A DNA stretch of 64,000 nucleotides from the IMG/VR virus record IMGVR_UViG_3300027759_000044; one strand, 5' to 3'. Each line of letters begins with the position of its first letter. Within the stretch, counting starts at the first letter, position 1. The notes under the pieces are model-generated. The model ran no database searches, was not told where the DNA came from, and saw nothing but the letters and a program-made list of their open reading frames with translations. The translations under genes and the position numbers were made by a program. The DNA is from a virus (Duplodnaviria; Caudoviricetes). Positions 555-31,065 of the stretch are shown here, in pieces.

Positions 555-860
555 ATGGATACAAAGTCATTAATAACCGAAGCCAAAGCCCGCTTTAATC
601 ACAATAGCGCAAAAGCATATTTAAAAGACAAATACGATAGTAAATTTATTGTAGCCGATCAAAACGGTTTATGGCGCTCTAATTTAGAAATTATCAACTT
701 CTTAAATTCAACATCAGATTCAGAAGTTATTATTATTGATACCTTCAACAACCCTGTCAAAGTTATTAGACAAGATTTGTTAGATAAACTCAGCACAGTT
801 TATAAAACAACTATGGAAGAATGGTATAACGAATGGGTTGAATTAGAGAAAAACCGATGA
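555..860 (+). CDS. hypothetical phage protein
   Basis: 101-aa ORF with GGAG SD, CTAAATA late-type element at 533-539, ATGA overlap with the next gene. Confidence 0.75.
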   Translation: MDTKSLITEAKARFNHNSAKAYLKDKYDSKFIVADQNGLWRSNLEIINFLNSTSDSEVIIIDTFNNPVKVIRQDLLDKLSTVYKTTMEEWYNEWVELEKNR

Positions 861-1660
861 GCAAGGGTGCATTATTATTTGCGTTTAACTCACCTAAGTA
901 CAACTACTATGATATGGCAGTTGCTACAGCTAAACGCATTAATCATTTTTTAAATTTACCTGTTACAATAGTAACAGATGAAAGTTCTATTCCTGATAAT
1001 AGAAATTATACCTTTGACAAAACTATAACAATAACCCCTGATAAAACTAATAAACGTGATTGGGGTATATGGATTAATAAGGGTAGATATAAAGCATTTG
1101 AATTAAGCCCGTATACCGAAACATTATTGTTAGATACAGATTATATGGTAAACTCATCTAAACTACTAAAAACATTTGATTTACCCACTGATTTCTGCTG
1201 TCACGATACTACTAGTTTTTTAATGCAACCGAGTGTTTCTCAAGAACTGTTAAGTGTTTATAGCTTTAATACATTATGGGCAACTGTAATTAACTTTAAA
1301 AGAACTAAACGGTCAGAACAAATATTTCAATGTTTAGGAATGGTACAAAATAATTTTGAACATTATGCTAATATACATGGATTCATCTCAGCCACGTTTA
1401 GAAATGATTATGGATTAACATTAGCTACACGTATTACTAACGGACATATTATGCCAATTGAAGATATAATTCCTTGGAACTTGTTGCATGTAGGAAAAAA
1501 TACTAGTGTTTATAGAAACAATGACCATGAATTTAATACAGAATATACAGTAATGTTTGATAACTGGCAACGTGGCAAAATTCGTAAAGAATATAATACT
1601 ATCAAAGATACTGACTTTCATGTTATGTCTAAAGAAAACTTTATGGAGCTAATAGCATGA
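857..1660 (+). CDS. putative GT-A-fold glycosyltransferase-like protein
   Basis: LLLDTDY DxD-type motif after a hydrophobic strand, LWATV motif; paralogous in layout to the next gene. Confidence 0.5.
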   Translation: MSKGALLFAFNSPKYNYYDMAVATAKRINHFLNLPVTIVTDESSIPDNRNYTFDKTITITPDKTNKRDWGIWINKGRYKAFELSPYTETLLLDTDYMVNSSKLLKTFDLPTDFCCHDTTSFLMQPSVSQELLSVYSFNTLWATVINFKRTKRSEQIFQCLGMVQNNFEHYANIHGFISATFRNDYGLTLATRITNGHIMPIEDIIPWNLLHVGKNTSVYRNNDHEFNTEYTVMFDNWQRGKIRKEYNTIKDTDFHVMSKENFMELIA

Positions 1661-2406
1661 CTAAAGGATTTGTAATAATGGCACAGGATACTGCTACAGT
1701 AAGTTATACTAACTGTGCTAAAGCATTGGAAAAAAGCATAAAACGTGTCATGCCTAATGCTAACGTTACTATAATTACTACTGATATGTTACCACACGGA
1801 AATTTGGGTGGTTACACAAATGATTGGCAAGTGTATGAAGCAAGCCCGTATGATGAAACTATTAAATTAGAAGCAGATATGTATATTCCACGCAACATTG
1901 ACTATTGGTGGGACGTTCTATCTACACAAGATGTTGTAGTATCAAGTTCTATTAGAAATTATAAGCAAGAACTATCTGATATTAGACTATATCGTAGATT
2001 TATTGATGATAACAATTTACCTGATGCATATAATGCGATAACATATTTTAAAAAATCAGATACGGCTAACCAATTTTTTGATATAGCAAGAAATGTCTTT
2101 GAGAATTGGGATGAGTATAAAAAAATACTAAAGTGTAATCCCGAAGAATTGGCTTCTACAGATTGGGTATATGCCATAGCATGTCATATTGTAGGGGTAG
2201 AAAAAACAATGATGCCGACATTTACTGAAATGTCGATGATTCATATGAAACAATATATTAATGGTACACCAACCGAAAACTGGACAGATACTTTTATATA
2301 TGAATGCTTATCTAATCAAATTAGAATTCAAACTATTCCACAACAATACCCATTTCACTATCATATAAAGAATTTCAGTGCTAAAATATTAGAAGGTATG
2401 AAATGA
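1657..2406 (+). CDS. putative GT-A-fold glycosyltransferase-like protein (paralogue of 857..1660)
   Basis: SPYDETIKLEADMY matches SPYTETLLLDTDY of the upstream gene; translationally coupled. Confidence 0.5.
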   Translation: MTKGFVIMAQDTATVSYTNCAKALEKSIKRVMPNANVTIITTDMLPHGNLGGYTNDWQVYEASPYDETIKLEADMYIPRNIDYWWDVLSTQDVVVSSSIRNYKQELSDIRLYRRFIDDNNLPDAYNAITYFKKSDTANQFFDIARNVFENWDEYKKILKCNPEELASTDWVYAIACHIVGVEKTMMPTFTEMSMIHMKQYINGTPTENWTDTFIYECLSNQIRIQTIPQQYPFHYHIKNFSAKILEGMK

Positions 2407-2759
2407 CTACGTCCAATGATGAAAAAGATTACATTATACTATGGGAACAACCTAAGTTAGAACCACCGGAATTTAGATTGTATTACGATGATAACGGTAA
2501 TGTAATATATTATAATGGAGATAAATCTGGTATCGGTAATTACATTGTTATTGATGCTCTTACCTTTGCGGCCGCAAGACATGATATAAAAGTTATTGAC
2601 AATAAAATATCTACTGTTGCGGCCAATGCGGTAATACATAAATTAATGCCAAATGATATTGAAGGTATAGAGTGTCATCTTGAAGATATAAGTGTAGTAG
2701 TTGATAATACATATACTGATAAAAACAAAAAATGGAAATTAACAACATATGAACTTTGA
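2403..2759 (+). CDS. hypothetical protein
   Basis: 118-aa ORF coupled by ATGA overlap in the operon. Confidence 0.65.
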   Translation: MTTSNDEKDYIILWEQPKLEPPEFRLYYDDNGNVIYYNGDKSGIGNYIVIDALTFAAARHDIKVIDNKISTVAANAVIHKLMPNDIEGIECHLEDISVVVDNTYTDKNKKWKLTTYEL

Positions 2760-3702
2760 AGATATTATTGATGTAGCAGATTTAGACTGTATCTATCTTA
2801 GTTATGATGAACCACAGAAAGAAGAATTTTGGCTGAAAATTAAGAACATGGTACCTTGGGCAAAACGGGTTGATAGTATTAAAGGCAGTGATGCCGCACA
2901 TAAAGCGGCAGGGGAAGCAAGCGATACTGAACGTTTCATTTTAATTGACGGCGATAATATGCCTAACGAAAGTTTCTTTAATCTACAATTAGACTTCACT
3001 GGCAAAGACCCTAACTATAAGATAGCACAATATCGTTGGAAAGCAATTAACAATATCAATGGACTACGCTATGGTAATGGCGGAATGAGTTCTTGGACAA
3101 AAACTTATGTGCGTGAGATGAAAACACATGAGCATCAAACTGAGGGTGATGTTTCACGAATCGCTGACTTTTGTTTAGACAGCAAAGATAACTTATACTG
3201 GACAATGTATGATTGCTACTCTACTACTTATCCTAATTATACTCCGTTTCAAGCGTGGCGAGCTGGATTCAGAGAAGGAGTAAAAATGGTTCTTGACCAT
3301 GGTGCCAAACCCACAGTTGATGCACTAAAAGAAACGGTTGCCAGTCGCAATCTCAACAACTTAACAATCTGGCACAACATCGGTCGTGATGTAGAGAACG
3401 GTGAGTGGGCTATTTACGGAGCACGTCTTGGTACATATATGACCATGCTTACTGAGTGGGATCCTGCTAATGTACAATGGTTTGATAACTATACAGTACT
3501 ATGGGAAGAACATTTACATAGAGATCCTGACCGTGAATCGGCATTACTTGGAGCCGCACTACATGACAAGTTGGGACTACCAATGAATCATTTTGATGGA
3601 GGACAAAGCAAGTTCTTCAAGCGTCATTATAGTGCTGATAAATATAATCTCGGGCCGTTAGTCAAAGAGATGGATGTTATTAGAAAAATAGAAGGTTGGT
3701 GA
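2749..3702 (+). CDS. GT2-like (GT-A) glycosyltransferase
   Basis: N-terminal strand DCIYLSYDE, FILIDGDN DxD motif, NGLRYGNGG motif. Confidence 0.55.
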   Translation: MNFEDIIDVADLDCIYLSYDEPQKEEFWLKIKNMVPWAKRVDSIKGSDAAHKAAGEASDTERFILIDGDNMPNESFFNLQLDFTGKDPNYKIAQYRWKAINNINGLRYGNGGMSSWTKTYVREMKTHEHQTEGDVSRIADFCLDSKDNLYWTMYDCYSTTYPNYTPFQAWRAGFREGVKMVLDHGAKPTVDALKETVASRNLNNLTIWHNIGRDVENGEWAIYGARLGTYMTMLTEWDPANVQWFDNYTVLWEEHLHRDPDRESALLGAALHDKLGLPMNHFDGGQSKFFKRHYSADKYNLGPLVKEMDVIRKIEGW

Positions 3703-3703
3703 T

Positions 3704-5131
3704 ATGAGTGAAAATATTAAAGGTGATGAAATTGGCAAAGTTGATGGCAAATTTCAAAGCTTATATCAAAACTCATCTGAACACGTATTAAAAGAACTTA
3801 ACAACGTAAGCCCAAGCTTTTGTTTAGCTAAATGGTATAATGTAAGCATTCATATCCCTACTGGTAGAACACATAGTTGTTATCATCCTCCCACACATCC
3901 TATCCCAATTGAAGAAGTAAAAATTGATGTAAGCGCATTACATAATACCAAATATAAAAAAGAACAACGTAAGCTGATGTTGGAAGGTAAACGTCCTTCT
4001 GAATGTAATTTTTGCTGGGAGATAGAAGATAGTGGTAACCAGTTAAGCGATAGGGCATATAGAAGTAAAGATGTATTTGCTCCGGGTATAATTGGTGAAG
4101 CCATACAAATTGGTTATGAAGGTAATCCTAAGCCTAGATATGTAGAAGTTAACTTTAATCAAGCATGTAATTTTAAATGCACCTACTGTAGCCCACACTT
4201 ATCATCCGCATGGATGCAAGATATTGAAAAGAATGGGGCTTTTATTCTATCCGATCATTGGCATAATGATATGACTTGGATGAAAGAATCCAATATGATT
4301 CCAAACAACAGGTCAGATAATCAATATATTGAAGCATTTTGGGAATGGTTACCTGACATTTATCCCACACTACAAACATTTCGTATGACCGGCGGTGAGC
4401 CATTAATGGATAAGAATACATTTAAGATGTTTGAGTATGTAAAAGATCATCCAAAAAAAGATTTACAACTAAGTCTGACTAGTAACTGTTGTCCACCTGA
4501 AGGACAGTGGGATAGATTTATGAATGGTTTAAAAAATATTACTGATGCTGATGCTGTGGATCACTTTATGTTATTCTGTAGTTTAGACAGTTGGGGCAAG
4601 CAAGCTGAATATATCCGTACTGGAATGGATTTTGAACTATTAGAAAAGAATATTATTGACTTTTTAATCAATAGTAAAAAACATAGTTTGACTTTTATTG
4701 TAACGTTTAACGCATTAAGTTATACAGGCTGGTTAGAGTATGTTAAACAAATACATAACATGCGTAAGACATATTGTACTGATAGGCAACTGATTTGGTT
4801 TGATGTTCCGATGTTATCTAGCCCCGAATGGCTTAATCCTAGAATTTTTCCTGAACTTATTACGGAGCTTGAAAAATCTGTTAAGTATATGCTTGAACAC
4901 AAAGAAGCTGACCACAATAGATTTAAAGGCTTCAAAGATTTTGAAATCAACAAAGTTGAAAGACTTATTGATTGGGTAAAAACTGAAAACAATTTTGACA
5001 GAAGTTTAGCAATGAAAAACTTTTATATGTACTTTACCGAACATGATAAACGTAGAGAAACAAACTTTTTAGAAACTTTCCCCGAATTAACTGAACAATG
5101 GAATAAATGTAAGGACGAACATGGACGATAG
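3704..5131 (+). CDS. radical SAM protein with N-terminal twitch/SPASM-like Cys domain
   Basis: CNFKCTYC (CxxxCxxC), MTGGEP, SLDSWG; N-terminal FC...HSCYH...CNFCW. Confidence 0.85.
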   Translation: MSENIKGDEIGKVDGKFQSLYQNSSEHVLKELNNVSPSFCLAKWYNVSIHIPTGRTHSCYHPPTHPIPIEEVKIDVSALHNTKYKKEQRKLMLEGKRPSECNFCWEIEDSGNQLSDRAYRSKDVFAPGIIGEAIQIGYEGNPKPRYVEVNFNQACNFKCTYCSPHLSSAWMQDIEKNGAFILSDHWHNDMTWMKESNMIPNNRSDNQYIEAFWEWLPDIYPTLQTFRMTGGEPLMDKNTFKMFEYVKDHPKKDLQLSLTSNCCPPEGQWDRFMNGLKNITDADAVDHFMLFCSLDSWGKQAEYIRTGMDFELLEKNIIDFLINSKKHSLTFIVTFNALSYTGWLEYVKQIHNMRKTYCTDRQLIWFDVPMLSSPEWLNPRIFPELITELEKSVKYMLEHKEADHNRFKGFKDFEINKVERLIDWVKTENNFDRSLAMKNFYMYFTEHDKRRETNFLETFPELTEQWNKCKDEHGR

Positions 5132-6479
5132 AGTTGTATTTGTAAAAAGCGTAAGAGATAGATTAAACACAGTAAGCCCAAGCTTCTGTGCGATGAAATG
5201 GTTACACCAAACATTGTATCTACACACCGGTGATAATCATAGCTGTTATCATCCTAGACCACATCATATCCCGCTAGATGAGATTGCCGTTGACCCAAGT
5301 GCATTGCATAACACTAAGTGGAAAAAAAAACAACGTAAAAAGATGTTAGAAGGTGAGCGTCCGGATGAATGTTACTATTGCTGGAATATTGAAGACCTTG
5401 AAGGAGATCATATCAGTGATAGGATGATACATAGCGCAAGCGATTTTAGTGAACCATTCATTGAAAAACTAGCACAAATGCCATGGGATGCACCTGTTAA
5501 TCCACGTTATTTGGAAGTAAGTTTTGGTAATGCGTGTAATTATCGGTGTGGTTATTGTAGCCCGCAAGCTAGCACAATGTGGATGGAAGAAATTAAAAAA
5601 CATGGTAACTATGATTTAACATACAATCAATATGGTATTGATTTTTTAACATCAGGTACATATTATGGACCTAAAGAAGAAAACCCATATATTGAAGCAT
5701 TTTGGAAATGGTGGCCTAGCTTAAGAAATGATTTACATACATTACGTATTACAGGTGGAGAACCATTAATGAATCCTGGTGCTATGCAGTTCTTTGACTT
5801 GTTAGAGGATGAACCCGCGCCAAACTTAGAAATAACATTGAATAGTAACTTGGGAGTTACATTTGATAGAGTTGATAGATTGATTGAACGTGTAGGATCA
5901 TTAACATCACAAAATAAAATACGTAAGTTTAGTTTTTTTACAAGCATTGAAGGTTGGGGAGAGCAAGCTGAATATATGCGTACAGGTATGAAGTGCGACC
6001 ATTGGGAAAGAAATATGAGAGCTGTTATGAAAACCGGCGCAACTATTAACTTGATGTGTACATTCAATGTATTATGTGTAGCAACATTTGAAAAGTTGTT
6101 ACATAAGGTTATTGAATGGCGTAAAGAGTTTGGTAAACATAGTGTTGGTCTTGATACTCCGTATTTGAAAGAACCACCCCATTGGATGATTAACATATTG
6201 ACACCTGATTTTATTCCATATATGGATAAGACGTTGAAGTTCATTCAGGATAATCCAGAACACTTTCATGCAGTAGAATATGAAAAATTTAAACGTGTTA
6301 CAAATTATATGAAAGAGCATGTGATTAGTGAAGACAAGATCCGCGCTGGACGTAGAGATTTCTATAGTTTCTTTACTGAGAATGATAAACGTTTGGGTAC
6401 GGATTTAATTAAAACATTCCCTGAATATAAAGACTTCTATGATTTGTGTAAGGATGTTTATGACAACTATGATAAATGA
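5121..6479 (+). CDS. radical SAM protein with N-terminal twitch-like domain (close paralogue of 3704..5131)
   Basis: CNYRCGYC, ITGGEP; shared SPSFC..KW, HSCYHP, SALHNT, QAEY.RTG motifs. Confidence 0.85.
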   Translation: MDDRVVFVKSVRDRLNTVSPSFCAMKWLHQTLYLHTGDNHSCYHPRPHHIPLDEIAVDPSALHNTKWKKKQRKKMLEGERPDECYYCWNIEDLEGDHISDRMIHSASDFSEPFIEKLAQMPWDAPVNPRYLEVSFGNACNYRCGYCSPQASTMWMEEIKKHGNYDLTYNQYGIDFLTSGTYYGPKEENPYIEAFWKWWPSLRNDLHTLRITGGEPLMNPGAMQFFDLLEDEPAPNLEITLNSNLGVTFDRVDRLIERVGSLTSQNKIRKFSFFTSIEGWGEQAEYMRTGMKCDHWERNMRAVMKTGATINLMCTFNVLCVATFEKLLHKVIEWRKEFGKHSVGLDTPYLKEPPHWMINILTPDFIPYMDKTLKFIQDNPEHFHAVEYEKFKRVTNYMKEHVISEDKIRAGRRDFYSFFTENDKRLGTDLIKTFPEYKDFYDLCKDVYDNYDK

Positions 6480-7692
6480 AAATAATAAACATTCATGGTG
6501 TGTAAATGCATACCATGCTCTTAGTGCTAACAATGACGGTAGTACTAAAACATGTTGTATGATCGGGGAGGAATACAATAAATTATCTAAAACTTCTAAT
6601 GAATACTACATTGGAGTCAAAAGTATTAAAGAAAACTTTGACTGTGACGCCGCACAAAATCTTAGAGATAATCTTTCAAGGGGTATAAAAGATAATTCCT
6701 GTCGTCTATGTTGGCAAGAAGAAGAAGGCGGGAGAAAAAGTAAACGTCTACGTGATAATGAAAAATACCTACATGCTATTGAATTTGATGGTCAGGCTCC
6801 GTTTACAGGACTTGCTAAGGTAGAATTAAACTTAGGTAACAACTGTAACATTAAATGTAGAACATGTCATCCTACAATTAGTTCTACCTGGATGAAAGAG
6901 GCATTTGATTTGGATCACGCACCCCGCGGCACTACATATAAAACATTTAGTGTAGGTATGAAAAAGTATCACCAACATTATGATGATGATAGCAGTTTTT
7001 GGCCTGATCTTATTGAAAACTTAGAAACAATTAAACAATTTGATTTTTATGGTGGCGAACCTTTCTTAAGCAAAAAGATGTGGGAAATATTACGTATATG
7101 TGTTGAACGTGGATACGCCAAGGACATTGAGCTACATTATAATACAAATGGAACAGTATGGCCTAAAGATATTGAGTTATGGAAACACTTTCGCTCAGTG
7201 AATATTAGCTTTAGCATTGATGGTATTGGTGAACGTTTTGAATATATGCGTTATCCTGCAAATTGGCAAGAAGTTAGAGCAAATATGAAAAAAGCTGTAG
7301 ACTTTAATATTGAACATAATAACTTATCATTAAGTTGGTGTATGACTTTAAGTAGTCTAAACATATATTATTTGCCTGAACTATTAGATGAGTATTACAA
7401 AAACTGGACAAGTATGGGATTCTATTTGAATTTAGTTCATAATCCAAATCATTTCAATATAAGCAAAATGTCACCTGAAGCTAAACAAGCCGCATTAGAA
7501 CAACTAAACAGTATTCCAAAAGAATATGAAAATGCATGGTATCAACTTCCCGGTATTATTGGGTTTATGATGGCCGGGGAATATGATCCCACAACATGGA
7601 ATTATATGCTTAAAACAATAGATAAGCATGACAAATATAGAGAGCAAGATTATGCTAAAACATTTAGTGATTTTTCAAAGGCAATAAGATGA
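6460..7692 (+). CDS. radical SAM protein with N-terminal twitch-like domain
   Basis: CNIKCRTC, FYGGEP, YNTNG, SIDG; AAGGA SD before ATG 6460. Confidence 0.85.
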   Translation: MTTMINENNKHSWCVNAYHALSANNDGSTKTCCMIGEEYNKLSKTSNEYYIGVKSIKENFDCDAAQNLRDNLSRGIKDNSCRLCWQEEEGGRKSKRLRDNEKYLHAIEFDGQAPFTGLAKVELNLGNNCNIKCRTCHPTISSTWMKEAFDLDHAPRGTTYKTFSVGMKKYHQHYDDDSSFWPDLIENLETIKQFDFYGGEPFLSKKMWEILRICVERGYAKDIELHYNTNGTVWPKDIELWKHFRSVNISFSIDGIGERFEYMRYPANWQEVRANMKKAVDFNIEHNNLSLSWCMTLSSLNIYYLPELLDEYYKNWTSMGFYLNLVHNPNHFNISKMSPEAKQAALEQLNSIPKEYENAWYQLPGIIGFMMAGEYDPTTWNYMLKTIDKHDKYREQDYAKTFSDFSKAIR

Positions 7693-8981
7693 GTGAACAA
7701 TTCTGGAAATCTAATAACTTAATGCAGATGCACATTGAGTTAACTAATTTATGTAACGCAGCCTGTCCTATGTGTGTTAGATTTTATAACAATAGTCCAC
7801 ATACTAGACCTGATTTAGAATTTGGACAAATCACTATTGATAAGTTTAAAAAATATTTCCCACCAGAAATTATTCGTAAATGTAATCTTATTTTATTTTG
7901 CGGCGTGCACGGAGATCCATGTATTGCTAAAGATATGTATGAGATATGTGAATATATCTATGAATGTTCTGAAACTACTGCTGTGCGTGTTAATACCAAT
8001 GGGGGTATGCGTAAAAGTGATTGGTGGGCTAAACTAGGCGCATTGTTTGCTAAACGAAAAAAGAGTTTAGCCGACGATTTTTGGGAAATTATATTTAGTA
8101 TTGATGGGTTAGAAGATACCAATCATTTATATCGTAGAAACGTAGAATGGTCAGCATTGATGGAAAATGTTAAGGCATTCGTTAATGCAGGTGGAGGAGC
8201 ATCTTGGGATTATTTGATATTTAAGCATAATGAACATCAAATACAAGAGGCAAAACGTTTTAGTGAACAGATTGGCTTTAGAGAGTTTATCCCTAAAAAA
8301 GCTTTGGGTGTAAGCTATGATGTTGAGAATAAGTTGACCATCATGCCTGTATTGAATAAAGAAGGTGAATTAGATTATACAATTGAATCACCTGTTAATC
8401 CAGAAAATAGAAACTTACCTAATGCTGATGGCACCTTACCATTAATGTATTGGCCCTTTAAGGTTGATGAATATCGCAAACTTAAAGATGATAAAGAATC
8501 TATAAGAATGAATTATGATATCAACGCTGATTCAATTTATCAGACTGCAATTAATAATAAAAACTTTGATGAGCAAGATTCATGTAGTATTATTTGCAAA
8601 TCCAAGACACCATTAGGCGGCAAAGAAATATTTGTTGATAACTTTGGCAGAGTTATGCCTTGTTGTTATATCGGGACACACTTAAATGGTAAATATAATG
8701 ATATTGCATCCATGCAATTATACAATCATATGAATCAATATGGCTGGGAGCATTTTAGTTTAGATACACATACATTAGAAGAAATACTTGATGCCGGACA
8801 CTTAGATAGAGTATTTGCTGATTCATGGAAGAAAGACTCAGTTAAGAATGGTAAATTAGCATATTGTGCTAATACATGCGGTAAGAAATCAGCTATTGAT
8901 AAAATATTTTCACATGAATTGAATGATAAAGCTAGTCAAATGGAAAAGTTTAGAACACAAAATGAACATAGAGTTGATTGA
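7689..8981 (+). CDS. radical SAM protein with C-terminal SPASM/twitch domain
   Basis: CNAACPMC, GVHGDP, VNTNG, FSIDG; C-terminal GRVMPCCY...CANTC. Confidence 0.85.
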   Translation: MSEQFWKSNNLMQMHIELTNLCNAACPMCVRFYNNSPHTRPDLEFGQITIDKFKKYFPPEIIRKCNLILFCGVHGDPCIAKDMYEICEYIYECSETTAVRVNTNGGMRKSDWWAKLGALFAKRKKSLADDFWEIIFSIDGLEDTNHLYRRNVEWSALMENVKAFVNAGGGASWDYLIFKHNEHQIQEAKRFSEQIGFREFIPKKALGVSYDVENKLTIMPVLNKEGELDYTIESPVNPENRNLPNADGTLPLMYWPFKVDEYRKLKDDKESIRMNYDINADSIYQTAINNKNFDEQDSCSIICKSKTPLGGKEIFVDNFGRVMPCCYIGTHLNGKYNDIASMQLYNHMNQYGWEHFSLDTHTLEEILDAGHLDRVFADSWKKDSVKNGKLAYCANTCGKKSAIDKIFSHELNDKASQMEKFRTQNEHRVD

Positions 8982-11808: not shown

Positions 11809-11810
11809 AC

Positions 11811-13861: not shown

Positions 13862-13864
13862 TAT

Positions 13865-15106: not shown

Positions 15107-15453
15107 CCGTATTTCTTAACTTCTTTAACCGGATCATTAAGTAGTTCGGCCATTCTATTTTTTAATACATAACGTTCACTTAATATATTACGAACATGTA
15201 TGGCTCTACGACCTACTTCTTCTAAACTATATTTGTGTTCTACTGTATACTTTTTGAAATCGTCCTCAAGTTCCCAAACTCTAGCATGTACCTCATATAG
15301 TTTATCTAAATCTTCTTTGATTAAATTAAAATTTAACTCTTTAAGTTGGTCAGTGTAGAAGTCTAGTTCTTCTTTATTATCACCTAGCTTTGCAAACTTA
15401 AGTTTGGCAATACAATAACGGTCTACTAGTTCAATTACTGGAAATTTATACAT
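15103..15453 (-). CDS. hypothetical helical protein
   Basis: 116-aa ORF coupled to the methyltransferase; its stop overlaps the stop of the convergent gene. Confidence 0.65.
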   Translation of the reverse strand: MYKFPVIELVDRYCIAKLKFAKLGDNKEELDFYTDQLKELNFNLIKEDLDKLYEVHARVWELEDDFKKYTVEHKYSLEEVGRRAIHVRNILSERYVLKNRMAELLNDPVKEVKKYG

Positions 15454-16642: not shown

Positions 16643-17540
16643 ATTTTAAAAATTGATTTCTGTTACTAAAGGTAGCATTGTCAAACTTTGTAGATAATTC
16701 ATCTACAATAGTATTAACTGTTTCTTTAAATTCAAAGTCAAAAGTTTTTTGAAACTTTGTCGTATCCATAATAAAGTCATATGAACCTGTAACATCAGGT
16801 TGAACATTGACATTACTTGATAATAATGAACTTATTTTATTACTAAGTCCTTCAACGGAATCATAAAAACTAGCTAGATTGTATATCCCTGCTATTGGTT
16901 TTTTAATGATAGTATCTATTGCCCTAGATATATCAGCAATACCTAAAATAGGACGAATAATATTTTTATTGTTAATAAGAATGTTTCCGTTCTCAATAGA
17001 ATGTTTGGTCATTGAGTTTATCATTAACTCTTCCCTAACGTTAGGACTCCACCCGTTAACGGTACCAAATCGTAACCCTACAATATTATACCCCTTAAGG
17101 ATCATTGATTGTGCAATATTATCAAGTGTGTATTTGGTCAAGTCATAGTTATTAATAGGTTTAAAAATAAGGTCAGTATCTTCATTTGTTTCTGAATGAG
17201 TATCACCATATACGCTTCCACTACTTGCATAGATAAGAGTTTGTCCCTTATCAAGTTTATGTGCTAAGTTGATGAAGTTATTGACATTATTATTCCAACT
17301 AGAGTTAGCTTCTCCCTGACACATTTTAACTGAACTATGACCGGCTAATAATACTACAACCTCAAACTTTGCTATATAATCTTTGGTAAGTGAGTTGTAA
17401 TCAATTACATTACTAAATCCTAAATTTTTACCAAACCAACATGTATCTATGCTTTGTATATCATAAGTATATTGTAGGTCGTGTGTTAGGCGGGAACCTA
17501 TATATCCGTTCCCACCTATTAATAGTATCTTTTTAGCCAT
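16635..17540 (-). CDS. NAD-dependent epimerase/dehydratase (extended SDR)
   Basis: GGNGYIG Rossmann motif, ASSGSVYG, YDLTK (YxxxK), LRFGTVNG. Confidence 0.85.
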   Translation of the reverse strand: MAKKILLIGGNGYIGSRLTHDLQYTYDIQSIDTCWFGKNLGFSNVIDYNSLTKDYIAKFEVVVLLAGHSSVKMCQGEANSSWNNNVNNFINLAHKLDKGQTLIYASSGSVYGDTHSETNEDTDLIFKPINNYDLTKYTLDNIAQSMILKGYNIVGLRFGTVNGWSPNVREELMINSMTKHSIENGNILINNKNIIRPILGIADISRAIDTIIKKPIAGIYNLASFYDSVEGLSNKISSLLSSNVNVQPDVTGSYDFIMDTTKFQKTFDFEFKETVNTIVDELSTKFDNATFSNRNQFLKYE

Positions 17541-17545
17541 CATTA

Positions 17546-17576
17546 TATTTATTGACTATTTTAGGGTCGATAAATA
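17546..17576. promoter_or_regulatory. back-to-back divergent late-type promoters (ATAAATA on both strands)
   Basis: TATTTAT at 17546-17552 (ATAAATA on minus) and ATAAATA at 17570-17576, in the only divergent intergenic region. Confidence 0.6.
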
Positions 17577-17640
17577 ATCGTATTAAGGTAATAACAGATT
17601 ATAATACTGATAAAAACGGAACATTAATAGAAAGATAACT

Positions 17641-17736
17641 ATGTTTATAATACGCTGGATTAAAAATATTATTAGAGAATACAAATATCGTAAACGAATT
17701 AAAGAATTACGTAAACGTGACCCATTTATTTATTAA
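17641..17736 (+). CDS. small basic protein (31 aa) missing from the ORF track
   Basis: MFIIRWIKNIIREYKYRKRIKELRKRDPFIY; fills the gap between the promoter and the SGNH/carbamoyltransferase genes. Confidence 0.6.
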   Translation: MFIIRWIKNIIREYKYRKRIKELRKRDPFIY

Positions 17737-17748
17737 TAGGTATACTTA

Positions 17749-18579
17749 ATGAGCCTTGCCAAATTAAATACCTTAATGTCTGATAACATAGATGATTTTA
17801 AAAAGTTTAGCATAGTTGCTACACGCAAAGATTTGTCTATTCAAACCGATATGAATGTACACTATTTTAGTCCATTAGACTATACACATAGAGAAACATG
17901 GAACTATGAAGATTTTAGTTACGATATATCTAAGTTAGGGTTTAGAGACAATTCAAATATTCCATCTGATATAGATATAGCTGCATTTGGTTGTAGTTTT
18001 ACTTTTGGTCAAGGTCTACCTAAAAATGTGTTATGGCATCATTTATTGGGAGATAGTTTACAACTATCTACGTATAACTTTGGGCAGCCTGCCGCAAGTG
18101 TAAAAACAGTATTAGATATATTTTCGTTAACGTGTAATCATACTAAAATAAAACATGCTATTTTTTTACTCCCACCATTTTTTAGATTACAGATAGCAAG
18201 CAAGCATAAGCATTCAGACAATGTTGAATTGATTCCTATAATACCTAATTATTCTAGTAATTTGGAAAATTCATATATGTTAGATGCGTCGGCAATTTAT
18301 AAATCATTGCCCAACGAAGAATTATGTAAAAATTTCAAAGATAATGTATATCTTATGGAATATATTGCTAAAAAAAATAATATTAAAATTTATTATTCTT
18401 CATGGGATAATTCAACGTATGAGATATTGCTTCAAATGAAATTTAAAAGTGCAATATTGTTACCAAGATGGATTGATTATACTACACCTGAGTTAAAAAG
18501 TTTGGCAAGAGATATGTTACATCCCGGACCGTCAAATCATTTGAAATGGGCTGAAGAAATTAAACCTTATATAATATAA
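17749..18579 (+). CDS. SGNH/GDSL-hydrolase-like protein
   Basis: AFGCSFTFG, NFGQPAAS, intact DxxH (RDMLHPG). Confidence 0.6.
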   Translation: MSLAKLNTLMSDNIDDFKKFSIVATRKDLSIQTDMNVHYFSPLDYTHRETWNYEDFSYDISKLGFRDNSNIPSDIDIAAFGCSFTFGQGLPKNVLWHHLLGDSLQLSTYNFGQPAASVKTVLDIFSLTCNHTKIKHAIFLLPPFFRLQIASKHKHSDNVELIPIIPNYSSNLENSYMLDASAIYKSLPNEELCKNFKDNVYLMEYIAKKNNIKIYYSSWDNSTYEILLQMKFKSAILLPRWIDYTTPELKSLARDMLHPGPSNHLKWAEEIKPYII

Positions 18580-20054
18580 TGAACTACATAGGTATTTCAT
18601 CTGGATTCCATGATGCAGCTGTTAGTGTTATAGATGATACTGGCAACATACTCTTTGCTGGGCACAGTGAACGATATAGTAAAAACAAACATGATAAAGA
18701 TATATGTGACGGATTATTAACCGACGCACTATCACATACCAATTATGTGAATTTACAATATCATTACTATGAACGCCCGTGGTTAAAGTCATTGCGTCAA
18801 TTACGTAGTGGAGAAGGTTTTGTTTGGCCAACATGGAATAATTTATTAGGTACTGTATACAATGACATGAGTAAACCTAACATACACACTCATAATCATC
18901 ACTTAAGTCACGCAGCCGCAGGGTTTCAAACAAGTATTTTTCAAGATGCCACTATTGTAGTAATTGATGCTATTGGTGAGTTTGATACTATCAGTATTTG
19001 GGATGCTAGATATATTAATGGAATAGCAAAGTATAAAAAACTATGGGGACAACGATATCCAGATAGTATTGGGTTGTTTTACTCAGCAATGACTAAACGA
19101 GCAGGTCTTAAACCATTAGATGAAGAATATATACTGATGGGTATGGCAGCATATGGTAACACTAGACCTTTGCGAGAAATGTCTAATACTTTAATAGAAT
19201 CTTTTAGCAACCTCACATTCAAACAAAACCTACATGTAGGTGTATCTGATGATTTTGCCAAAGGTGCGGACAATATGGACATTGCACATAGCGCACAATT
19301 GATAGTTGAACAAATGATAATGGCAGTTATTAGTAAAGCACGAATGCTAGGTGGTAGTAGGAACTTAGTGTATGGCGGAGGAGTAGCATTAAATTGTTTA
19401 GCAAATAGATTGTTAGGAGAATATTATGACAACATTTGGATTATTCCTAATCCTGGCGATGCTGGTTCTAGTCTTGGAGCCGCTGCTTTGGGCTACGGTA
19501 AACAGCTTAATTGGATTGATGCTTATCTTGGTCATAATATCCCTGGTGACTACCCTGTTAATAAGTTATTGGATCATCTTGTTACCACTGGCATTGTTGG
19601 TGTGGCTAGTGGTCGTGCTGAATTTGGACCTAGAGCCCTTGGACATAGAAGCTTACTTGCAGATCCAAGAGGATCAGCAATAAAAGATAAGGTAAATGAG
19701 ATTAAACGTAGACAAAAGTTTAGACCATTTGCTCCTATTATATTAGAAGAATATGCTGATACTTACTTTGATATGCCTAAAGGTTTTACTAACAGTCGAT
19801 ATATGCAAGTTATCAGTAGATGTAGAGTACCTGAATTATTCCCTGCTATTGTTCACCATGACAATACCAGCCGTGTTCAAACAGTACCAAAAGACGGGTC
19901 GGGTATTAGAGAACTATTAGAAAAGTGGTATGTGTTAACTGGATGTCCAATGTTGTTGAATACATCATTAAACATACGTGGTGAGCCGATGGTTAATGAT
20001 AGAGCAGATGCTGATAGATTTGAAAAACTTTATAATGTCCCTGTAATTTCATAA
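18579..20054 (+). CDS. carbamoyltransferase (NodU/CmcH family)
   Basis: GISSGFHDAA, HHLSHAA, VIDAIGE, EYILMGMAAYG, GGVALNC, EFGPRALG.RS, KRRQKFRPFAP, LLNTSLN. Confidence 0.92.
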   Translation: MNYIGISSGFHDAAVSVIDDTGNILFAGHSERYSKNKHDKDICDGLLTDALSHTNYVNLQYHYYERPWLKSLRQLRSGEGFVWPTWNNLLGTVYNDMSKPNIHTHNHHLSHAAAGFQTSIFQDATIVVIDAIGEFDTISIWDARYINGIAKYKKLWGQRYPDSIGLFYSAMTKRAGLKPLDEEYILMGMAAYGNTRPLREMSNTLIESFSNLTFKQNLHVGVSDDFAKGADNMDIAHSAQLIVEQMIMAVISKARMLGGSRNLVYGGGVALNCLANRLLGEYYDNIWIIPNPGDAGSSLGAAALGYGKQLNWIDAYLGHNIPGDYPVNKLLDHLVTTGIVGVASGRAEFGPRALGHRSLLADPRGSAIKDKVNEIKRRQKFRPFAPIILEEYADTYFDMPKGFTNSRYMQVISRCRVPELFPAIVHHDNTSRVQTVPKDGSGIRELLEKWYVLTGCPMLLNTSLNIRGEPMVNDRADADRFEKLYNVPVIS

Positions 20055-20062
20055 GTATACTA

Positions 20063-23000
20063 ATGCTTAGAGATGTATTTTATTACGGGAATAAACCCAA
20101 TGTTCACCCAAGAGAAAAACATGCAATTGATTTAGTTGATGCTAGACAACAAGCTACTACTGAACATTTTTGGATAATCAATGAATATTGCGATTATACC
20201 AATTTTGATTGGGATTGGGACTTTGATTTTTTACCTGATGAAGAAGTTTGGACAGGTGAACATAATAATGTATGGCCAAACAAACAAAATAAAGACAGTG
20301 GCACATGGCTATGTTCAACCCAATATAGCGACATTATTATATATCGGGCAGATGTTGAACCTGTTAATAGAAAAAATACAAAACATAATAATTGGGTAAT
20401 TTTAGATAAGATTGATGAAACCAAATTTGATTTTAGTTGGGAGCCCAATCCATATGATCCTCCTTATATATACAAATGGGGTTGTAAATTCTATCCCGCT
20501 GAAATTAAACATTATGTAGAGTATCATGTTGAGGGTGCTACTAATATAAAATATATGCCTGATGTAGTAGAATTATCTCCTGAATGGGATAAATGGAAAA
20601 TAAATTATTCTATTGACAAATCAAGTTTTGATTTTAGTTGGAGACCTGATCCTCGTGAACCAGCATTTATTTATATGTTTGGTAACACACAATATCTAGC
20701 TGAAACGATGCCAACAGTTGAATATCATGTATCGGGAGCAACAGAACAAAAATTTATTGATGACCTATCAATGAGAGCCAAAATATTACCCAATAGTACA
20801 CGATTTGAACATTTAGAAAATTGTGATGGAATAGATTATTCATGGGTACCTGATCCATGGAGTCCCCCGTATATCTATGCTTGGGGCAATCAATGGAATA
20901 AACCAGAAGATAAAATCTCTATTCAATATGTTGTTGAAGGTGCAACAGAATACAAATACATGGAAGACCGTGCTACACGTAAACCATGCATGGACAACTG
21001 GGAAATACCACCTTATGTTATAAAGAATAGTTTTGATTTTAGTTGGGAACCTAATCCACATGACCCACCTTACATATATCAATTTGGTACAGTACATCAA
21101 AAGACAGGCGGTCCTCGCTATACAGTGCCCGGTGCAACAGAATTAAAATATATTGATACTGTTAAAGCAGAAGTAGTAGCATGGAGATTTACAAATTGGT
21201 TGATTCCAAGAAATGTAGACCAGGCATCATTTGATTGGAGTTGGCATCCCGATGATACTGACCCGCCCTACATCTATCAATTTCCTAGTACATGGAGTAA
21301 AACAGGTGGACCTAAATTTACTGTAGAAGGTGCCACTGAAACAAAATATATAGATTCGTTAATAGCAAAAGTTAAACAAGATATGACACATTGGTCTATA
21401 CCTGAAGGATTAGATACTAGTGAGTTTGATTTTAGTTGGCATCCTGATGTTGAAGACAAACCCTATATATATCAATTTGGTACACAATGGCAAAAAACAA
21501 ATGGTCCTGTTTTTACTGCTCCATTATGCGATGAAACTACACCTATCAAGTATATAGATATTATCAAAGCAAAATATTTGCCTAATAAAACAAATTGGAT
21601 TATACCTGCAGGGTTTGATGAAACTAAATTTGATTTTAGTTGGCATCCTGATGCAACTAGCCCGGCATATATCTATCAGTTTGGCACACTATTAGATGAC
21701 GTTCATTTAGAAGACGGTCCTAAATATGTTACACCCGATAATGACGGGACCATTGTATTAATGGAAAACATATTGTTATCAGATACAGTAGTACAGTACC
21801 CTCAATATTATATTGAAACTACATTAGAAGCATTGATAGAACAACACATAGATGAAATCTTTTGGGCATTACGTAAGAACATTAACTATACTAAGTTTGA
21901 TTTTGCATGGCAACCAACTAAAGAACAAGCATTTAATATTAACACATTTGGTAGTCCTGACAGTGAGTTAACACAAACCTACTTAGTTAACGGTAAGATG
22001 TGGCAAAAAGGTTATAGAGATATTAGCTTTATTGAAAATACAAAACTAGATGAAGAATATCTATCTAAGTTATTCAAACAAGTTGACGCTTTCTTTGTGG
22101 ATAAAGGTAATAAAGAATCTGCTACTAGATTTGAACAACTAAAAATACACTTCCCTACACTACAAAAGACACGTTATCTAAACAGTTGGGTTGATACAAT
22201 CAATCGCTGTATCAACAAATCTACTACAGAACTATGCTGGATATTGAATAGTGAATTAGATTATACTAACTTTGATTTTAACTATTATCCTAACCCATGG
22301 CAAATGACAATGGTTCATGTATTTGGCACTCAATGGAGTCATTGGGGTAGTACGTTTATGGTCAATAAAGAAACCTTTGCGGAAGATACAAAGTATGTGA
22401 AAATTATTGAACACCTAACTAACTTAAACTTTGTAAAAACAAAACGTGCTATAGCTAGTAATTGCTTGTATGATGTTTACTTAATTGATTATGGTAATGA
22501 CGGAGTTAATGATATTGTTTCATTAATAGAAAGCAAGATTAAACGTGAAAACGTTTATACAATCAAGTATGAAACTGATTACTTAACTACATTGAAGAAT
22601 ATGCTATATGAGTTGGGTATAAAAAAGGATCACTACATTTGGGTATGCAGTTCAATATGTGATTACACTAACTTTGACTTTACTTATATATGTGATCCAT
22701 TCTCATTGGAGCAGTTACATGTATTCCCTAGTGATAAACAAAAGTTTGGAGATACATTCTTTATTAATGTAAACAAATTACGTATTCTTGTAGAAGATTT
22801 GGATAAGCTAGAAAATATAGAGAAGATTAACTTTAATCAGCATCAAAAAGTAAAACGTTTGCCTGCCCCTAGTTTTGTTACTGATGCTGATACACATTTG
22901 AATTTCAAAAAACATAGTTATAACTTCCCTTATGCTGTGTTTACTACAAGTGATAATTTAATCGCACCAGACATTAATGATGAACCAATCAGTATGTGGT

Positions 23001-23812
23001 CTATTGAATCTAAGAATATATTGATTACGAATATGGGAGGCACACGTATTGTTGTACCCAAAGAAGCTAATAATTATGTTGAAAAGGAGTTGTATGATTA
23101 TCCATACATTTCCAAAGCAACAAAGATAGGACAGTCAACGCCACTGGATATAGTCTTCCTAAGTAACGGTGAAACCGGAGCTGACGAGAACTACGAACAC
23201 TTACTGAACGTGACTAAAGGACTGAAAAATCGTGTTGTTAGAGTCGACGGGGTCAATGGTCGTGTTGCTGCCTATCATGCAGCCGCAATTGCTAGTCAAA
23301 CATCTTGGATGTTTACGGTGTTTGCTAAATTAAAAGTTAATAGCAAGTTTGACTGGACATGGCAACCTGATAGATTACAAGTACCTAAACATTATATCTT
23401 CTATGCAAGTAACCCTGTTAATGGATTAGTATATGGTCACCAAGCTATGATTGCGTACAACAAACAGATTACATTAAGTAATATGGGCAAAGGATTAGAC
23501 TTTACATTAGATAGTGAGCATGAAGTTGTTGAGATTAATTCGGGTGTAGCACGTTACAATACAGATGAGTTTAGTACATGGCGCACTAGTTTCCGTGAAG
23601 CTATTAAGTTACGATTAGATGATAGTGCTATTAGTAGACACAGATTGAAAGTATGGACAACCGTTGGTGAAGGAGACTATGCCCAATATAGTACACAAGG
23701 TGCTCAACATGCTGTAGAATACTTTGAACAAGTCAATGGGGATTTAGACAAATTACGACTAAGTTATGATTGGCCTTGGTTGCAAGAGTATTTTAATACT
23801 AAATACAATTGA
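20063..23812 (+). CDS. 1249-aa protein of tandem FDFSWxPD...YIYQFG repeats with a C-terminal degenerate GT-A-like domain
   Basis: Seven well-conserved repeats plus about five diverged ones; C-terminal DIVFLSNGE...VDGVNG...NPVNGLVYG resembles 2749..3702. Confidence 0.7.
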   Translation: MLRDVFYYGNKPNVHPREKHAIDLVDARQQATTEHFWIINEYCDYTNFDWDWDFDFLPDEEVWTGEHNNVWPNKQNKDSGTWLCSTQYSDIIIYRADVEPVNRKNTKHNNWVILDKIDETKFDFSWEPNPYDPPYIYKWGCKFYPAEIKHYVEYHVEGATNIKYMPDVVELSPEWDKWKINYSIDKSSFDFSWRPDPREPAFIYMFGNTQYLAETMPTVEYHVSGATEQKFIDDLSMRAKILPNSTRFEHLENCDGIDYSWVPDPWSPPYIYAWGNQWNKPEDKISIQYVVEGATEYKYMEDRATRKPCMDNWEIPPYVIKNSFDFSWEPNPHDPPYIYQFGTVHQKTGGPRYTVPGATELKYIDTVKAEVVAWRFTNWLIPRNVDQASFDWSWHPDDTDPPYIYQFPSTWSKTGGPKFTVEGATETKYIDSLIAKVKQDMTHWSIPEGLDTSEFDFSWHPDVEDKPYIYQFGTQWQKTNGPVFTAPLCDETTPIKYIDIIKAKYLPNKTNWIIPAGFDETKFDFSWHPDATSPAYIYQFGTLLDDVHLEDGPKYVTPDNDGTIVLMENILLSDTVVQYPQYYIETTLEALIEQHIDEIFWALRKNINYTKFDFAWQPTKEQAFNINTFGSPDSELTQTYLVNGKMWQKGYRDISFIENTKLDEEYLSKLFKQVDAFFVDKGNKESATRFEQLKIHFPTLQKTRYLNSWVDTINRCINKSTTELCWILNSELDYTNFDFNYYPNPWQMTMVHVFGTQWSHWGSTFMVNKETFAEDTKYVKIIEHLTNLNFVKTKRAIASNCLYDVYLIDYGNDGVNDIVSLIESKIKRENVYTIKYETDYLTTLKNMLYELGIKKDHYIWVCSSICDYTNFDFTYICDPFSLEQLHVFPSDKQKFGDTFFINVNKLRILVEDLDKLENIEKINFNQHQKVKRLPAPSFVTDADTHLNFKKHSYNFPYAVFTTSDNLIAPDINDEPISMWSIESKNILITNMGGTRIVVPKEANNYVEKELYDYPYISKATKIGQSTPLDIVFLSNGETGADENYEHLLNVTKGLKNRVVRVDGVNGRVAAYHAAAIASQTSWMFTVFAKLKVNSKFDWTWQPDRLQVPKHYIFYASNPVNGLVYGHQAMIAYNKQITLSNMGKGLDFTLDSEHEVVEINSGVARYNTDEFSTWRTSFREAIKLRLDDSAISRHRLKVWTTVGEGDYAQYSTQGAQHAVEYFEQVNGDLDKLRLSYDWPWLQEYFNTKYN

Positions 23813-24087: not shown

Positions 24088-24110
24088 GAAAAGGCTCTTC
24101 GGAGCCTTTC
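24088..24110 (+). terminator. intrinsic terminator after tmRNA
   Basis: AAAGGCTC-TTCG-GAGCCTTT hairpin. Confidence 0.75.
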
Positions 24111-24171
24111 CTATTTAATAAATATCATGATATTTCTCAACTAAAAAGCAAATAAATACTATCTCTAGAGG

Positions 24172-31056: not shown

Positions 31057-31065
31057 GGACCTAGT

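Follow-up and report, generated by a model that had tools for sequence, protein, structure and literature searches.

What does a giant phage make with an array of radical SAM enzymes set among glycosyltransferases, close to a fibre-like gene? The question is raised by a gene-dense block at positions 555–23812 of the window (the whole stretch of 64,000 nt that was analysed), which carries genes on both strands and comes from the genome of an uncultured freshwater giant phage. On the best reading, this is a T4-like jumbo phage in which the island is tied to the tail-fibre region. We found no paper characterising an island of this type. Features of the block lie on the plus strand unless the minus strand is named.

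A bracketed flexible island

The plus-strand genes are separated by gaps of −26 to +8 bases, in agreement with a preliminary description of the locus in which most genes were held to be translationally coupled; a cassette of three genes runs on the minus strand (15103–17543). The same description set the start of the island at 857, which is too late. The first gene of the operon (555–860) encodes a 101-aa conserved protein, present in 79 of the 80 loci compared (50–81% identity) and without a family match in Pfam or PHROG, and a late-promoter-like element, CTAAATAC (TAAATA), lies ~15 nt upstream of it. The island may be expressed late; across the window, the late-promoter motif of T4 in its strict form, TATAAATA, shows no enrichment (6 occurrences versus 13 expected). 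PADLOC returned no defence-system match, only partial, core-level matches to pVip (22–37 bits) and one candidate-family match for the B12 radical SAM enzyme.

The comparison of 80 loci, out of 413 IMG/VR matches, revealed the bracketed flexible architecture of the block, which is new here. A conserved 5′ core (555–3702), whose genes are found in 79–80 of the 80 loci, and a conserved giant protein at the 3′ end (20063–23812, called BIG), found in all five complete relatives searched, enclose a variable middle part. In the relatives examined, this part spans 7.4–24 kb, holds 5–16 radical SAM genes and is replaced from phage to phage: the radical SAM set of the window has orthologues (at least 60% identity) in only 2 of the 80 loci, whereas the gene for the DXD protein of the core, the best conserved in the island, is 77–96% identical in all of them. 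The layout of conserved flanks and variable core had been overlooked, as had the fact that a downstream GT2 gene (28627–29349) is part of a different cassette.

Conserved glycosyltransferases of the flanks

Four GT-A glycosyltransferases bracket the island and are conserved across hundreds of related phages. About five ORFs had been called glycosyltransferase-like; four are upheld by fold or homology, whereas the fifth (13865–15106) has only a weak lead to GT10. GTa (857–1660; 80 of 80 loci) is predicted to be a GT-A enzyme of the GT8/glycogenin-like, retaining type: the top Foldseek matches of its AlphaFold model (pLDDT 91.9) are glycogenin-1 and -2 (E 1e-7, ~228 columns, probability 1.00, TM 0.43–0.47), together with GT6 enzymes. 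GTb (1657–2406; 80 of 80 loci) is its paralogue (hhalign probability 98.3%) and corresponds to phrog_1903, a PHROG without a function label. In GTa, both aspartates of the DxD motif (D93, D95) are invariant, and the second does not vary in either paralogue. Neither protein has a match in Pfam, NCBIfam or PDB sequences, and GTa is, by its model, GT8-like at the fold level only.

The following gene (2403–2759) encodes a 118-aa conserved protein (80 of 80 loci, 43–78% identity) without a family match and precedes that of the DXD protein (2749–3702), for which the model (pLDDT 90) indicates an N-terminal GT-A domain (residues ~3–165) and a helical C-terminal domain. Against the Protein Data Bank, Foldseek ranks A64R, the capsid glycosyltransferase of PBCV-1, first (E 7e-5), and residues 3–165 reach VIA Z 8–10 against many GT-A enzymes. 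Two aspartates, D67 and D69, hardly vary (at least 90% conservation across 47 homologues), and the family comprises 1093 clusters at 50% identity. At the other end of the island, BIG (1249 aa; 1353–2298 aa in relatives) has, as read from the sequence, ~7 repeats of ~66 aa with the motif FDFSWxPDPxDPPYIYxFG (residues ~107–545), followed by a C-terminal region (residues 1028–1212) that is 27% identical to the DXD protein. BIG has no match in Pfam, PHROG, NCBIfam or PDB sequences; across the five relatives the whole-protein identity is 51–74%, and the best-matching segment reaches 93%. The DXD protein, by its model, and the C-terminus of BIG, by its alignment with the DXD protein, are placed among GT-A, GT2-like domains.

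Among 50,697 deposited phage records, the core module matched only Ralstonia phage RsoM2USA (MG752970). Its ORF346-354 follow the order GTa, GTb, small ORF, DXD, a radical SAM gene of family NF033640 (described below) and a second DXD-like gene, at 29–40% identity, and all the module genes are annotated as hypothetical. Unlike the island, this module has one radical SAM gene and lacks BIG and the genes for the B12 enzyme, the carbamoyltransferase and the C-methyltransferase. It lies downstream of the tail sheath and of structural proteins confirmed by mass spectrometry (PMC8504454).

Replaceable tailoring genes

Pfam and NCBIfam confirm all six radical SAM proteins of the preliminary description (five radical SAM/twitch and one B12-binding), which divide into four members of NF033640, one protein of ordinary domain order and one B12 protein. 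The identity of the NF033640 family had been overlooked. The curated cut-off of this family (N_Twi_rSAM, twitch domain-containing radical SAM protein) is 170 bits, and the four N-terminal-twitch members are Tw1 (3704–5131, 312 bits), Tw2 (5121–6479, 313 bits), Tw3 (6439–7692, 298 bits; the start is probably at 6454; 412 aa in the JGI gene call) and Tw5 (12638–13861, 212 bits). Their domain order is inverted, with a four-Cys twitch/SPASM-like domain first and the CxxxCxxC core and GGEP motif after it. Aligned, the four copies share without exception C23, C42, C84 and C87, followed by C139, C143 and C146 (CxxxCxxC) and the GGEP motif, and Pfam places SPASM at residues 7–69 and Radical_SAM at 108–255 of Tw5. 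The paralogues are 21–36% identical; Tw2 is 36% identical to Tw1 and to ORF349 of RsoM2USA.

The radical SAM tree has three clades: A (Tw1, Tw2), B (Tw3, Tw5) and C. The protein in clade C, rS4 (7689–8981), has the ordinary domain order, with an N-terminal core (CxxxCxxC at residues 22–29) and a Cys-rich C-terminus; it matches Radical_SAM (19.5 bits in Pfam) and the radical SAM family phrog_21308. Membership of rS4 in NF033640 was rejected (45 bits). The class B (B12-binding) radical SAM protein (8978–11038) matches PF02310 (41.1 bits, cut-off 32.1) and PF04055 (58.6 bits, cut-off 29.5). In NCBIfam it comes nearest to RiPP, P- and C-methyltransferases, each time far below the equivalog cut-off, and from its sequence it is likely of the methyltransferase type.

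In the literature we found no characterised member of NF033640 and no paper on its role, and no solved structure comes close: GDGT-MAS, which matches best (E 8e-6), does so over the core only. In Bdellovibrionota, some genomes carry arrays of at least 8 copies, and the copy number of a genome can reach 18 or more. In a Pseudobdellovibrionaceae genome, a DXD homologue, a GT7C/GT2 gene, a GT2 gene, an NF033640 gene and another GT2 gene lie among housekeeping genes, and a UDPGP gene adjoins a bacterial NF033640 array. In one Bdellovibrionales chromosome, housekeeping genes enclose eight copies, none of which has an adjacent glycosyltransferase.

Do these enzymes edit sugars or proteins? SPASM/twitch enzymes more often modify peptides, which counts against sugars. 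The most serious alternative, which we nevertheless regard as unlikely, is that they modify protein (cross-links, epimerised residues or C-methyl groups, in the fibre or in the small conserved proteins) in a RiPP- or polytheonamide-like manner, with the sugars as a separate decoration. The auxiliary-cluster domains of SPASM/twitch type are typical of peptide maturases, the secondary NCBIfam matches are nearly all RiPP maturases, the nearest families to the B12 protein are RiPP C-methyltransferases (ApyD, TIGR03975), and bacterial arrays can stand without adjacent glycosyltransferases. However, Pfam detects no PqqD/RRE domain in any of the radical SAM proteins; the small ORFs at 555–860 and 2403–2759 are conserved, lack a Cys/Ser/Thr-rich core region and are not precursor-like; the gap of the bacterial array holds no precursor-like ORF; and the clade-A copy repeatedly adjoins glycosyltransferases. 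From this linkage, we infer that the radical SAM enzymes of the island act on sugars, where the chemistry could be epimerisation, oxidation, deoxygenation or C-methylation.

The NDP-sugar C-methyltransferase, epimerase and carbamoyltransferase reported earlier all score above Pfam cut-offs, the epimerase as an SDR/epimerase-family protein. The first two are in the minus-strand cassette. It comprises a 116-aa helical protein (15103–15453, minus strand), which accompanies the C-methyltransferase in L011, L037, L040, L072 and G006 as well (70–90% identity); the NDP-hexose C-methyltransferase itself (15446–16642, minus strand), with a TylC3-type architecture in which Methyltransf_13, _23 and _14 exceed their cut-offs (PF08421 64 bits, PF13489 68 bits, PF08484 95 bits); and an extended SDR of the NDP-sugar epimerase, reductase or dehydratase family (16635–17543, minus strand; PF01370 76 bits), which stays below every NCBIfam equivalog cut-off. 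The island encodes neither a nucleotidyltransferase nor a 4,6-dehydratase, so that host enzymes or the SDR would have to provide these steps for the branched-sugar route to be complete. The NodU/CmcH-type O-carbamoyltransferase (18579–20054; Carbam_trans_N 113 bits, Carbam_trans_C 157 bits) is directly upstream of BIG, as it is in G005, G006 and L032. That it is NodU itself was rejected (NodU equivalog 135 bits, cut-off 1000).

The three proteins described as GCS-type SGNH indeed have G-C-S-[YF]-T where SGNH enzymes have GDS. The first (11029–11808; block I, VAYGCSYTAGDEL) and the second (11811–12641) are 34% identical, and only block I is clear in them. The first has no HMM match; the ESM Atlas neighbours of the second (score 0.96) are viral clusters with DUF6071 in 20–40% of members and Lipase_GDSL in 11–17%. 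The third (17749–18579) has an intact Ser-Asp-His set, with G81-C82-S83, D255 and H258 invariant in 29 homologues and Cys in place of the usual Asp of GDS. Its top solved-structure matches are GDSL proteins at marginal E values (0.027–0.16), and it matches DUF6473 weakly (18 bits, under the cut-off of 27). Finally, the gene at 13865–15106 encodes a 413-aa protein of a recurrent island family, with one to four paralogues in relatives' islands. It may be GT10/fucosyltransferase-like, given an Atlas lead to Glyco_transf_10 at only 0.77; a Pfam domain was found in none of its 338 homologues, and its profile found no solved relative. The islands of relatives additionally encode a UDP-Glc/GDP-Man dehydrogenase, a DegT aminotransferase and a NodS-like methyltransferase.

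Product and acceptor

Ser/Thr-rich proteins flank the island. Its conserved upstream neighbour (79 of 80 loci) is a Ser/Thr/Gly-rich fibre-like protein (26–31% Ser+Thr), of which the window holds the C-terminal 168 aa of ~320 aa (1–507, plus strand). It aligns with ORF355 of RsoM2USA (24% identity over 177 aa), whose N-terminus matches a tail-fibre-like protein encoded just upstream in L011. The structural gene that had been placed directly upstream is thus fibre-like by this alignment and by its Ser/Thr richness, although it has no PHROG match.

We give a probability of about one half to the reading that the island is a soluble cytoplasmic glycosylation-and-tailoring system, linked to the fibre region and most likely acting on Ser/Thr-rich fibre-type virion proteins. 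The conserved GT-A set (GTa, GTb, DXD and BIG) would use nucleotide sugars to build a glycan on an acceptor in the cytoplasm, most likely the neighbouring fibre-type proteins. The interchangeable middle genes would then diversify this glycan with a toolkit of N-terminal-twitch radical SAM enzymes, a B12 radical SAM enzyme of methyltransferase type, SGNH-like acyl-handling proteins, a C-methyl branched-sugar cassette and an O-carbamoyltransferase. Because the middle part can be swapped, each phage lineage would display its own glycan variant. The decorated glycan of the preliminary description has gained support, from three conserved GT-A proteins and the GT-A domain of BIG, from nucleotide-sugar enzymes in this island and those of relatives, and from NF033640 genes wedged among GT2 genes in bacteria. 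Of its proposed targets, the host surface is weakened, nothing speaks positively for DNA, and only position, beside the fibre-like Ser/Thr-rich genes, favours the virion; such adjacency, weak as evidence, suggests the acceptor.

Could the glycan belong to the host instead? Remodelling of the envelope of the infected cell (LPS or capsule), with exclusion of superinfecting phages as one possible purpose, seems rather improbable to us. GT8 enzymes are common in LPS synthesis, and host-envelope remodelling has been proposed for the glycosyltransferase-rich hypervariable regions of pelagimyophages, which lie beside tail fibres, carry GT8 and radical SAM cassettes and were read as modifying the host O-chain (PMC7029224). 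That paper on T4-like pelagimyophages and cyanomyophages has no enzyme-family analysis; the island differs from these regions in having defined conserved flanks and no membrane components, and in residing in jumbo phages of ~300–525 kb of the PA5oct/Phosso/RsoM2USA terminase group. The host-surface target is weakened because none of the 102 island proteins from six genomes, all soluble, has a membrane-like segment (no 19-residue hydropathy window of at least 1.6, whereas membrane proteins encoded in the same 64,000 nt, the positive control, reach 1.7–2.9) and none was recognised as a flippase, a polymerase, a lipid-carrier-priming glycosyltransferase or a GtrA/B-type protein.

There is little to recommend a free, heavily tailored glycoside (aminoglycoside- or nucleoside-like), made during infection in place of a polymer decoration. 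The enzyme mix resembles aminoglycoside pathways, which include the twitch radical SAM enzyme BtrN, the B12 radical SAM C-methyltransferase GenK and the carbamoyltransferase TobZ, and the solubility of all island proteins would suit such a product, but the glycosyltransferases are GT-A and not GT-B, the island lacks a core synthase for a cyclitol or aminosugar as well as an exporter, and such a product would account for neither the giant repeat protein nor the linkage to the fibre. Least probable of all is the hypermodification of phage DNA or nucleotides with sugars, which would fit the cytoplasmic location of the island proteins, the glycosylation of DNA by T4-like phages and the presence of radical SAM enzymes in thymidine hypermodification pathways, but the island is in the structural and not the replication region and lacks a hydroxymethylase, a DNA kinase and a GT-B DNA glucosyltransferase.

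A virion-directed glycosylation system would have partial precedents. PBCV-1 A64R and its partners, the Mimivirus fibril cluster and the capsid and tail glycosyltransferases of mycobacteriophages likewise combine soluble, virus-encoded GT-A and sugar-nucleotide enzymes beside structural genes, but they are not known to have a conserved bracket around a replaceable tailoring array, and for the island a glycan and its acceptor are predicted from the genes. To our knowledge, none of these virion glycosylation systems includes radical SAM enzymes. Bacterial O-antigen and capsule loci follow the same logic of conserved flanks and replaceable middle; in contrast to them, the island has no Wzx/Wzy, ABC transporter or lipid-carrier steps, and radical SAM enzymes predominate in its tailoring, a feature uncommon among loci of that kind. 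The decorations also resemble those of Nod factors (NodU, NodS, NodZ): carbamoyl (NodU-type), methyl (NodS-like, in a relative), acyl and possibly fucosyl.

More tentatively, and with more doubt than belief, we suggest that NF033640 is a new carbohydrate-editing radical SAM class acting on a fibre-attached glycan, that swapped arrays produce lineage-specific fibre glycans and that the toolkit is exchanged with predatory Bdellovibrionota. Array swapping would, as part of this joint proposal, be the glycan counterpart of receptor-binding-protein diversification. Bdellovibrionota predators likewise attach to Gram-negative prey, and their expansion of NF033640 is an unexplained parallel to the phage arrays.

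Virus-encoded glycosylation is established in giant algal and amoebal viruses and in some mycobacteriophages. We know of no case established for T4-like jumbo phages, and of none with radical SAM chemistry. The present lineage, which numbers hundreds of metagenomic members, devotes 7–24 kb per genome to a replaceable array of NF033640-type enzymes, and the cultured phage RsoM2USA, with its minimal module, makes the question testable now. If the proposed role holds, these arrays would offer a wealth of radical carbohydrate chemistry that has yet to be tapped, and if the product is a virion glycan, they would diversify phage surfaces at a new level, with consequences for host range, recognition by defences and particle stability.

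Conserved flanks and a replaceable middle

The island (555-23812) is tightly packed, with intergenic gaps of -26 to +8 bases across the ORFs at 555-15106 and again across 17749-23812, and a three-gene cassette on the opposite strand (15103-17543). A TAAATA late-promoter-like element lies upstream of 555; the window shows no enrichment of the strict T4 late-promoter motif TATAAATA, and scans for sigma-70 promoters and terminators gave background levels. A look-up of RNA data sets with a 10-kb stretch listed none. One marine metatranscriptome covered a minor part of the DXD gene (2749-3702, named for its DxD motif), and nearly all fragments on the window were less than 90% alike; these come from relatives and are therefore uninformative on expression or timing here.

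The DXD gene has 413 relatives in IMG/VR, with 77-96% identity in the 80 loci that we fetched, and JGI metagenome contigs carry identical copies. The flanks are conserved in related phages: from the fibre-like ORF just upstream of the island (1-507) through DXD, each gene was found in 79-80 of the 80 loci, and BIG, the 1249-aa giant protein at 20063-23812, closes the island in all five near-complete relatives (303-525 kb). The middle is replaced. Gene content downstream of DXD changes between loci, orthologues of the window's radical SAM genes (at least 60% identity) occur in only two of the 80 (L011 and L044), and ORFs with a radical SAM motif number from 1 to 7 per locus, with a median of five, in the 55 loci whose downstream sequence extends for a full 10 kb. 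Across the five near-complete relatives the variable stretch ranges from 7.4 to about 24 kb and holds 5, 9, 16, 8 and 6 radical SAM genes (six in the window). The set of a small ORF, a C-methyltransferase and an SDR behaves like a mobile cassette, as does the pair just ahead of BIG formed by a GCS protein (17749-18579, with G-C-S where SGNH proteins have GDS) and a carbamoyltransferase. The relatives' islands also hold a UDP-Glc/GDP-Man dehydrogenase, a piece of a DegT-type aminotransferase, a NodS-like methyltransferase and another SDR. A middle part that is replaced while the flanks stay nearly identical looks like the outcome of diversifying selection on an exposed structure. The island gene order is also seen in short contigs from MAGs of Flavobacteriales/Bacteroidetes (L082, L100 and L107), one of which (L082) encodes a homologue of the radical SAM protein Tw2 (5121-6479; 78% identity) followed by a GCS protein and homologues of Tw3 (6439-7692) and rS4 (7689-8981); these are probably misbinned phage contigs.

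The large terminase (55418-56965) shares about 50% identity with its counterparts in the PA5oct group and in Sinorhizobium phage Phosso, and the window also encodes a UvsX-type recombinase and fibre paralogues. Directly after BIG, a GC-rich gap of 360 bp matches Rfam tmRNA models at 23778-24113 (+), with 98.6 bits for beta_tmRNA (gathering threshold 84) and 104 bits for the permuted tmRNA model, and ends in a hairpin with a T-rich stretch behind it; no tmRNA was reported there by ARAGORN. The gap may encode a tmRNA of the phage, and its match to the Betaproteobacteria model is a possible pointer to the host. The first gene beyond it (24172-25317, +) encodes a protein with 28% Ser+Thr and a hydrophobic N-terminus (phrog_20531) that may be a further structural or surface protein flanking the island. 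A GT2 gene (28627-29349) adjoining a metallophosphoesterase was excluded as a member of the island: it lies 4.8 kb past BIG, beyond the tmRNA-like gene and two others. Further downstream is a run of host-like genes (30238-35708, +) with a transport and racemase set unusual in a phage: an SBP_bac_3 solute-binding protein (30238-31056), a sodium:dicarboxylate symporter (31066-32343), an Asp/Glu racemase (32904-33686) and a Gram-negative porin (34824-35708). Four fibre-type paralogues (phrog_2295) follow at 36035-42059 (+), with N-terminal parts 54-83% identical, 27-28% Ser+Thr and a GC content of 44-48%, against about 34% elsewhere.

Enzymes of the island

Pfam and NCBIfam identify six radical SAM genes, in agreement with the five plus one B12 radical SAM protein initially counted. 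Four proteins (Tw1, 3704-5131; Tw2; Tw3; Tw5, 12638-13861) match NF033640, the radical SAM family with an N-terminal twitch, at 212-313 bits (curated cut-off 170), and in an alignment of the four the N-terminal cysteines (four), the CxxxCxxC triad and GGEP are all invariant. The protein at 7689-8981 has the ordinary domain order, with the radical SAM core first and then a Cys-rich tail, and that at 8978-11038 combines B12-binding and radical SAM domains. No close relative of NF033640 was found among solved structures, and a literature search turned up nothing on these enzymes. The C-methyltransferase, epimerase and carbamoyltransferase proposed from the sequence were recovered above Pfam cut-offs as an NDP-hexose C-methyltransferase, an extended SDR and a NodU/CmcH-type carbamoyltransferase. 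HMM searches gave no significant match for the three GCS proteins (11029-11808, 11811-12641 and 17749-18579). In the family of the third, Ser83 (of G-C-S), Asp255 and His258 are invariant and the best solved-structure matches are GDSL enzymes, with marginal E-values; some Atlas neighbours of the second bear DUF6071 or Lipase_GDSL.

The glycosyltransferase-like genes had no Pfam matches, and two of them were therefore folded. The model of 857-1660 (GTa; pLDDT 92) has its best fold matches in glycogenin and GT6 enzymes (E 1e-7), and the predicted fold is that of a GT-A protein; 1657-2406 (GTb) is its paralogue (hhalign 98.3%). In the model of DXD (pLDDT 90), residues 3-165 form a GT-A domain whose DxD is near-invariant, and a family-specific helical domain comes next. 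Foldseek ranks the PBCV-1 capsid glycosyltransferase first for this model, and comparison by VIA gave Z values of about 10 against many GT-A enzymes. The C-terminal domain of BIG is 27% identical to DXD and is preceded by about seven 66-residue repeats with the motif FDFSWxPDPxDPPYIYxFG; BIG has no match in Pfam, PHROG, NCBIfam or PDB sequences. When profiles of GTa, GTb and the 413-aa family at 13865-15106 were searched against solved-structure sequences, nothing useful came up. Of the roughly five glycosyltransferase-like ORFs in the preliminary description, GTa, GTb, DXD and the C-terminus of BIG are supported by fold or homology, whereas 13865-15106 has a weak lead to GT10 (Atlas score 0.77). 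BIG homologues in the five near-complete relatives are 51-74% identical over the whole protein, and up to 93% over the best-matching segment, with lengths of 1353-2298 aa; with the window copy the range becomes 1249-2298 aa, apparently owing to differing numbers of the approximately 66-aa FDFSW repeats. In one of them (G006), query residues 107-542 match many times over.

Homologues in a cultured phage and in Bdellovibrionota

A Megablast query with the island returned no close relative from 50,697 deposited phage records, and among these records the module occurs only in Ralstonia phage RsoM2USA, whose gene order is like that of the window: GTa, GTb, a small ORF, DXD, a single NF033640 gene and then another DXD-like gene. 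There, the module lies behind the genes for the tail sheath and for structural proteins that mass spectrometry has confirmed (PMC8504454). ORF355 of RsoM2USA fuses a fibre N-terminus to a region resembling ORF 1-507.

A single scan of genome contigs with a degenerate pattern gave 26 confirmed matches, 23 of them in MAGs named Bdellovibrionota, and the NF033640 family is present in 31 of 151 sampled genomes of this group versus none of 14 model genomes. A 1.9-Mb Bdellovibrionales chromosome carries 18 copies that score above the cut-off, and eight of these are consecutive between housekeeping genes. Large expansions were seen in the Bdellovibrionota genomes G001 (792-803 kb and 1068-1092 kb) and G002, with the 18 copies of the 1.9-Mb chromosome and about 24 in a 4.5-Mb MAG; the copies stand in tandem arrays, some without a nearby glycosyltransferase. 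A Pseudobdellovibrionaceae genome has a single copy amid a DXD homologue and three GT2-type genes, and another bacterial array is bordered by a UDPGP gene. A tree of 65 copies has three clades: A is DXD-linked and includes Tw1, Tw2, the RsoM2USA copy and the glycosyltransferase-cassette copy; B; and C, which has the ordinary domain order. Phage and bacterial rows are interleaved in this tree, forcing at least seven changes.

Proposed carbohydrate chemistry and its candidate acceptor

Carbohydrate chemistry is the best reading of the island: its glycosyltransferases are conserved, it holds nucleotide-sugar enzymes, and glycosyltransferase and radical SAM genes are repeatedly linked. This lends support to the glycan part of the initial proposal. 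Not one of 102 island proteins, drawn from six genomes, contains a membrane-like segment, which argues for a cytoplasmic pathway that would act on a soluble acceptor and weakens the idea of a host-surface modification, as proposed for comparable regions of pelagimyophages (PMC7029224). The virion is favoured as target by position only; Ser/Thr-rich fibre-like genes flank the island on both sides. The radical SAM enzymes may instead modify a peptide, but Pfam revealed no recognition domain and the 839-bp gap of a bacterial array contained no precursor, just short junk-like ORFs. A role in anti-phage defence was rejected after a search with PADLOC models.

We found no publications characterising this system. 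New in this analysis are the bracket formed by DXD and BIG, the finding that the island lacks membrane proteins, the assignment of folds, the division of the radical SAM family into clades and the glycosyltransferase cassette of Bdellovibrionota.
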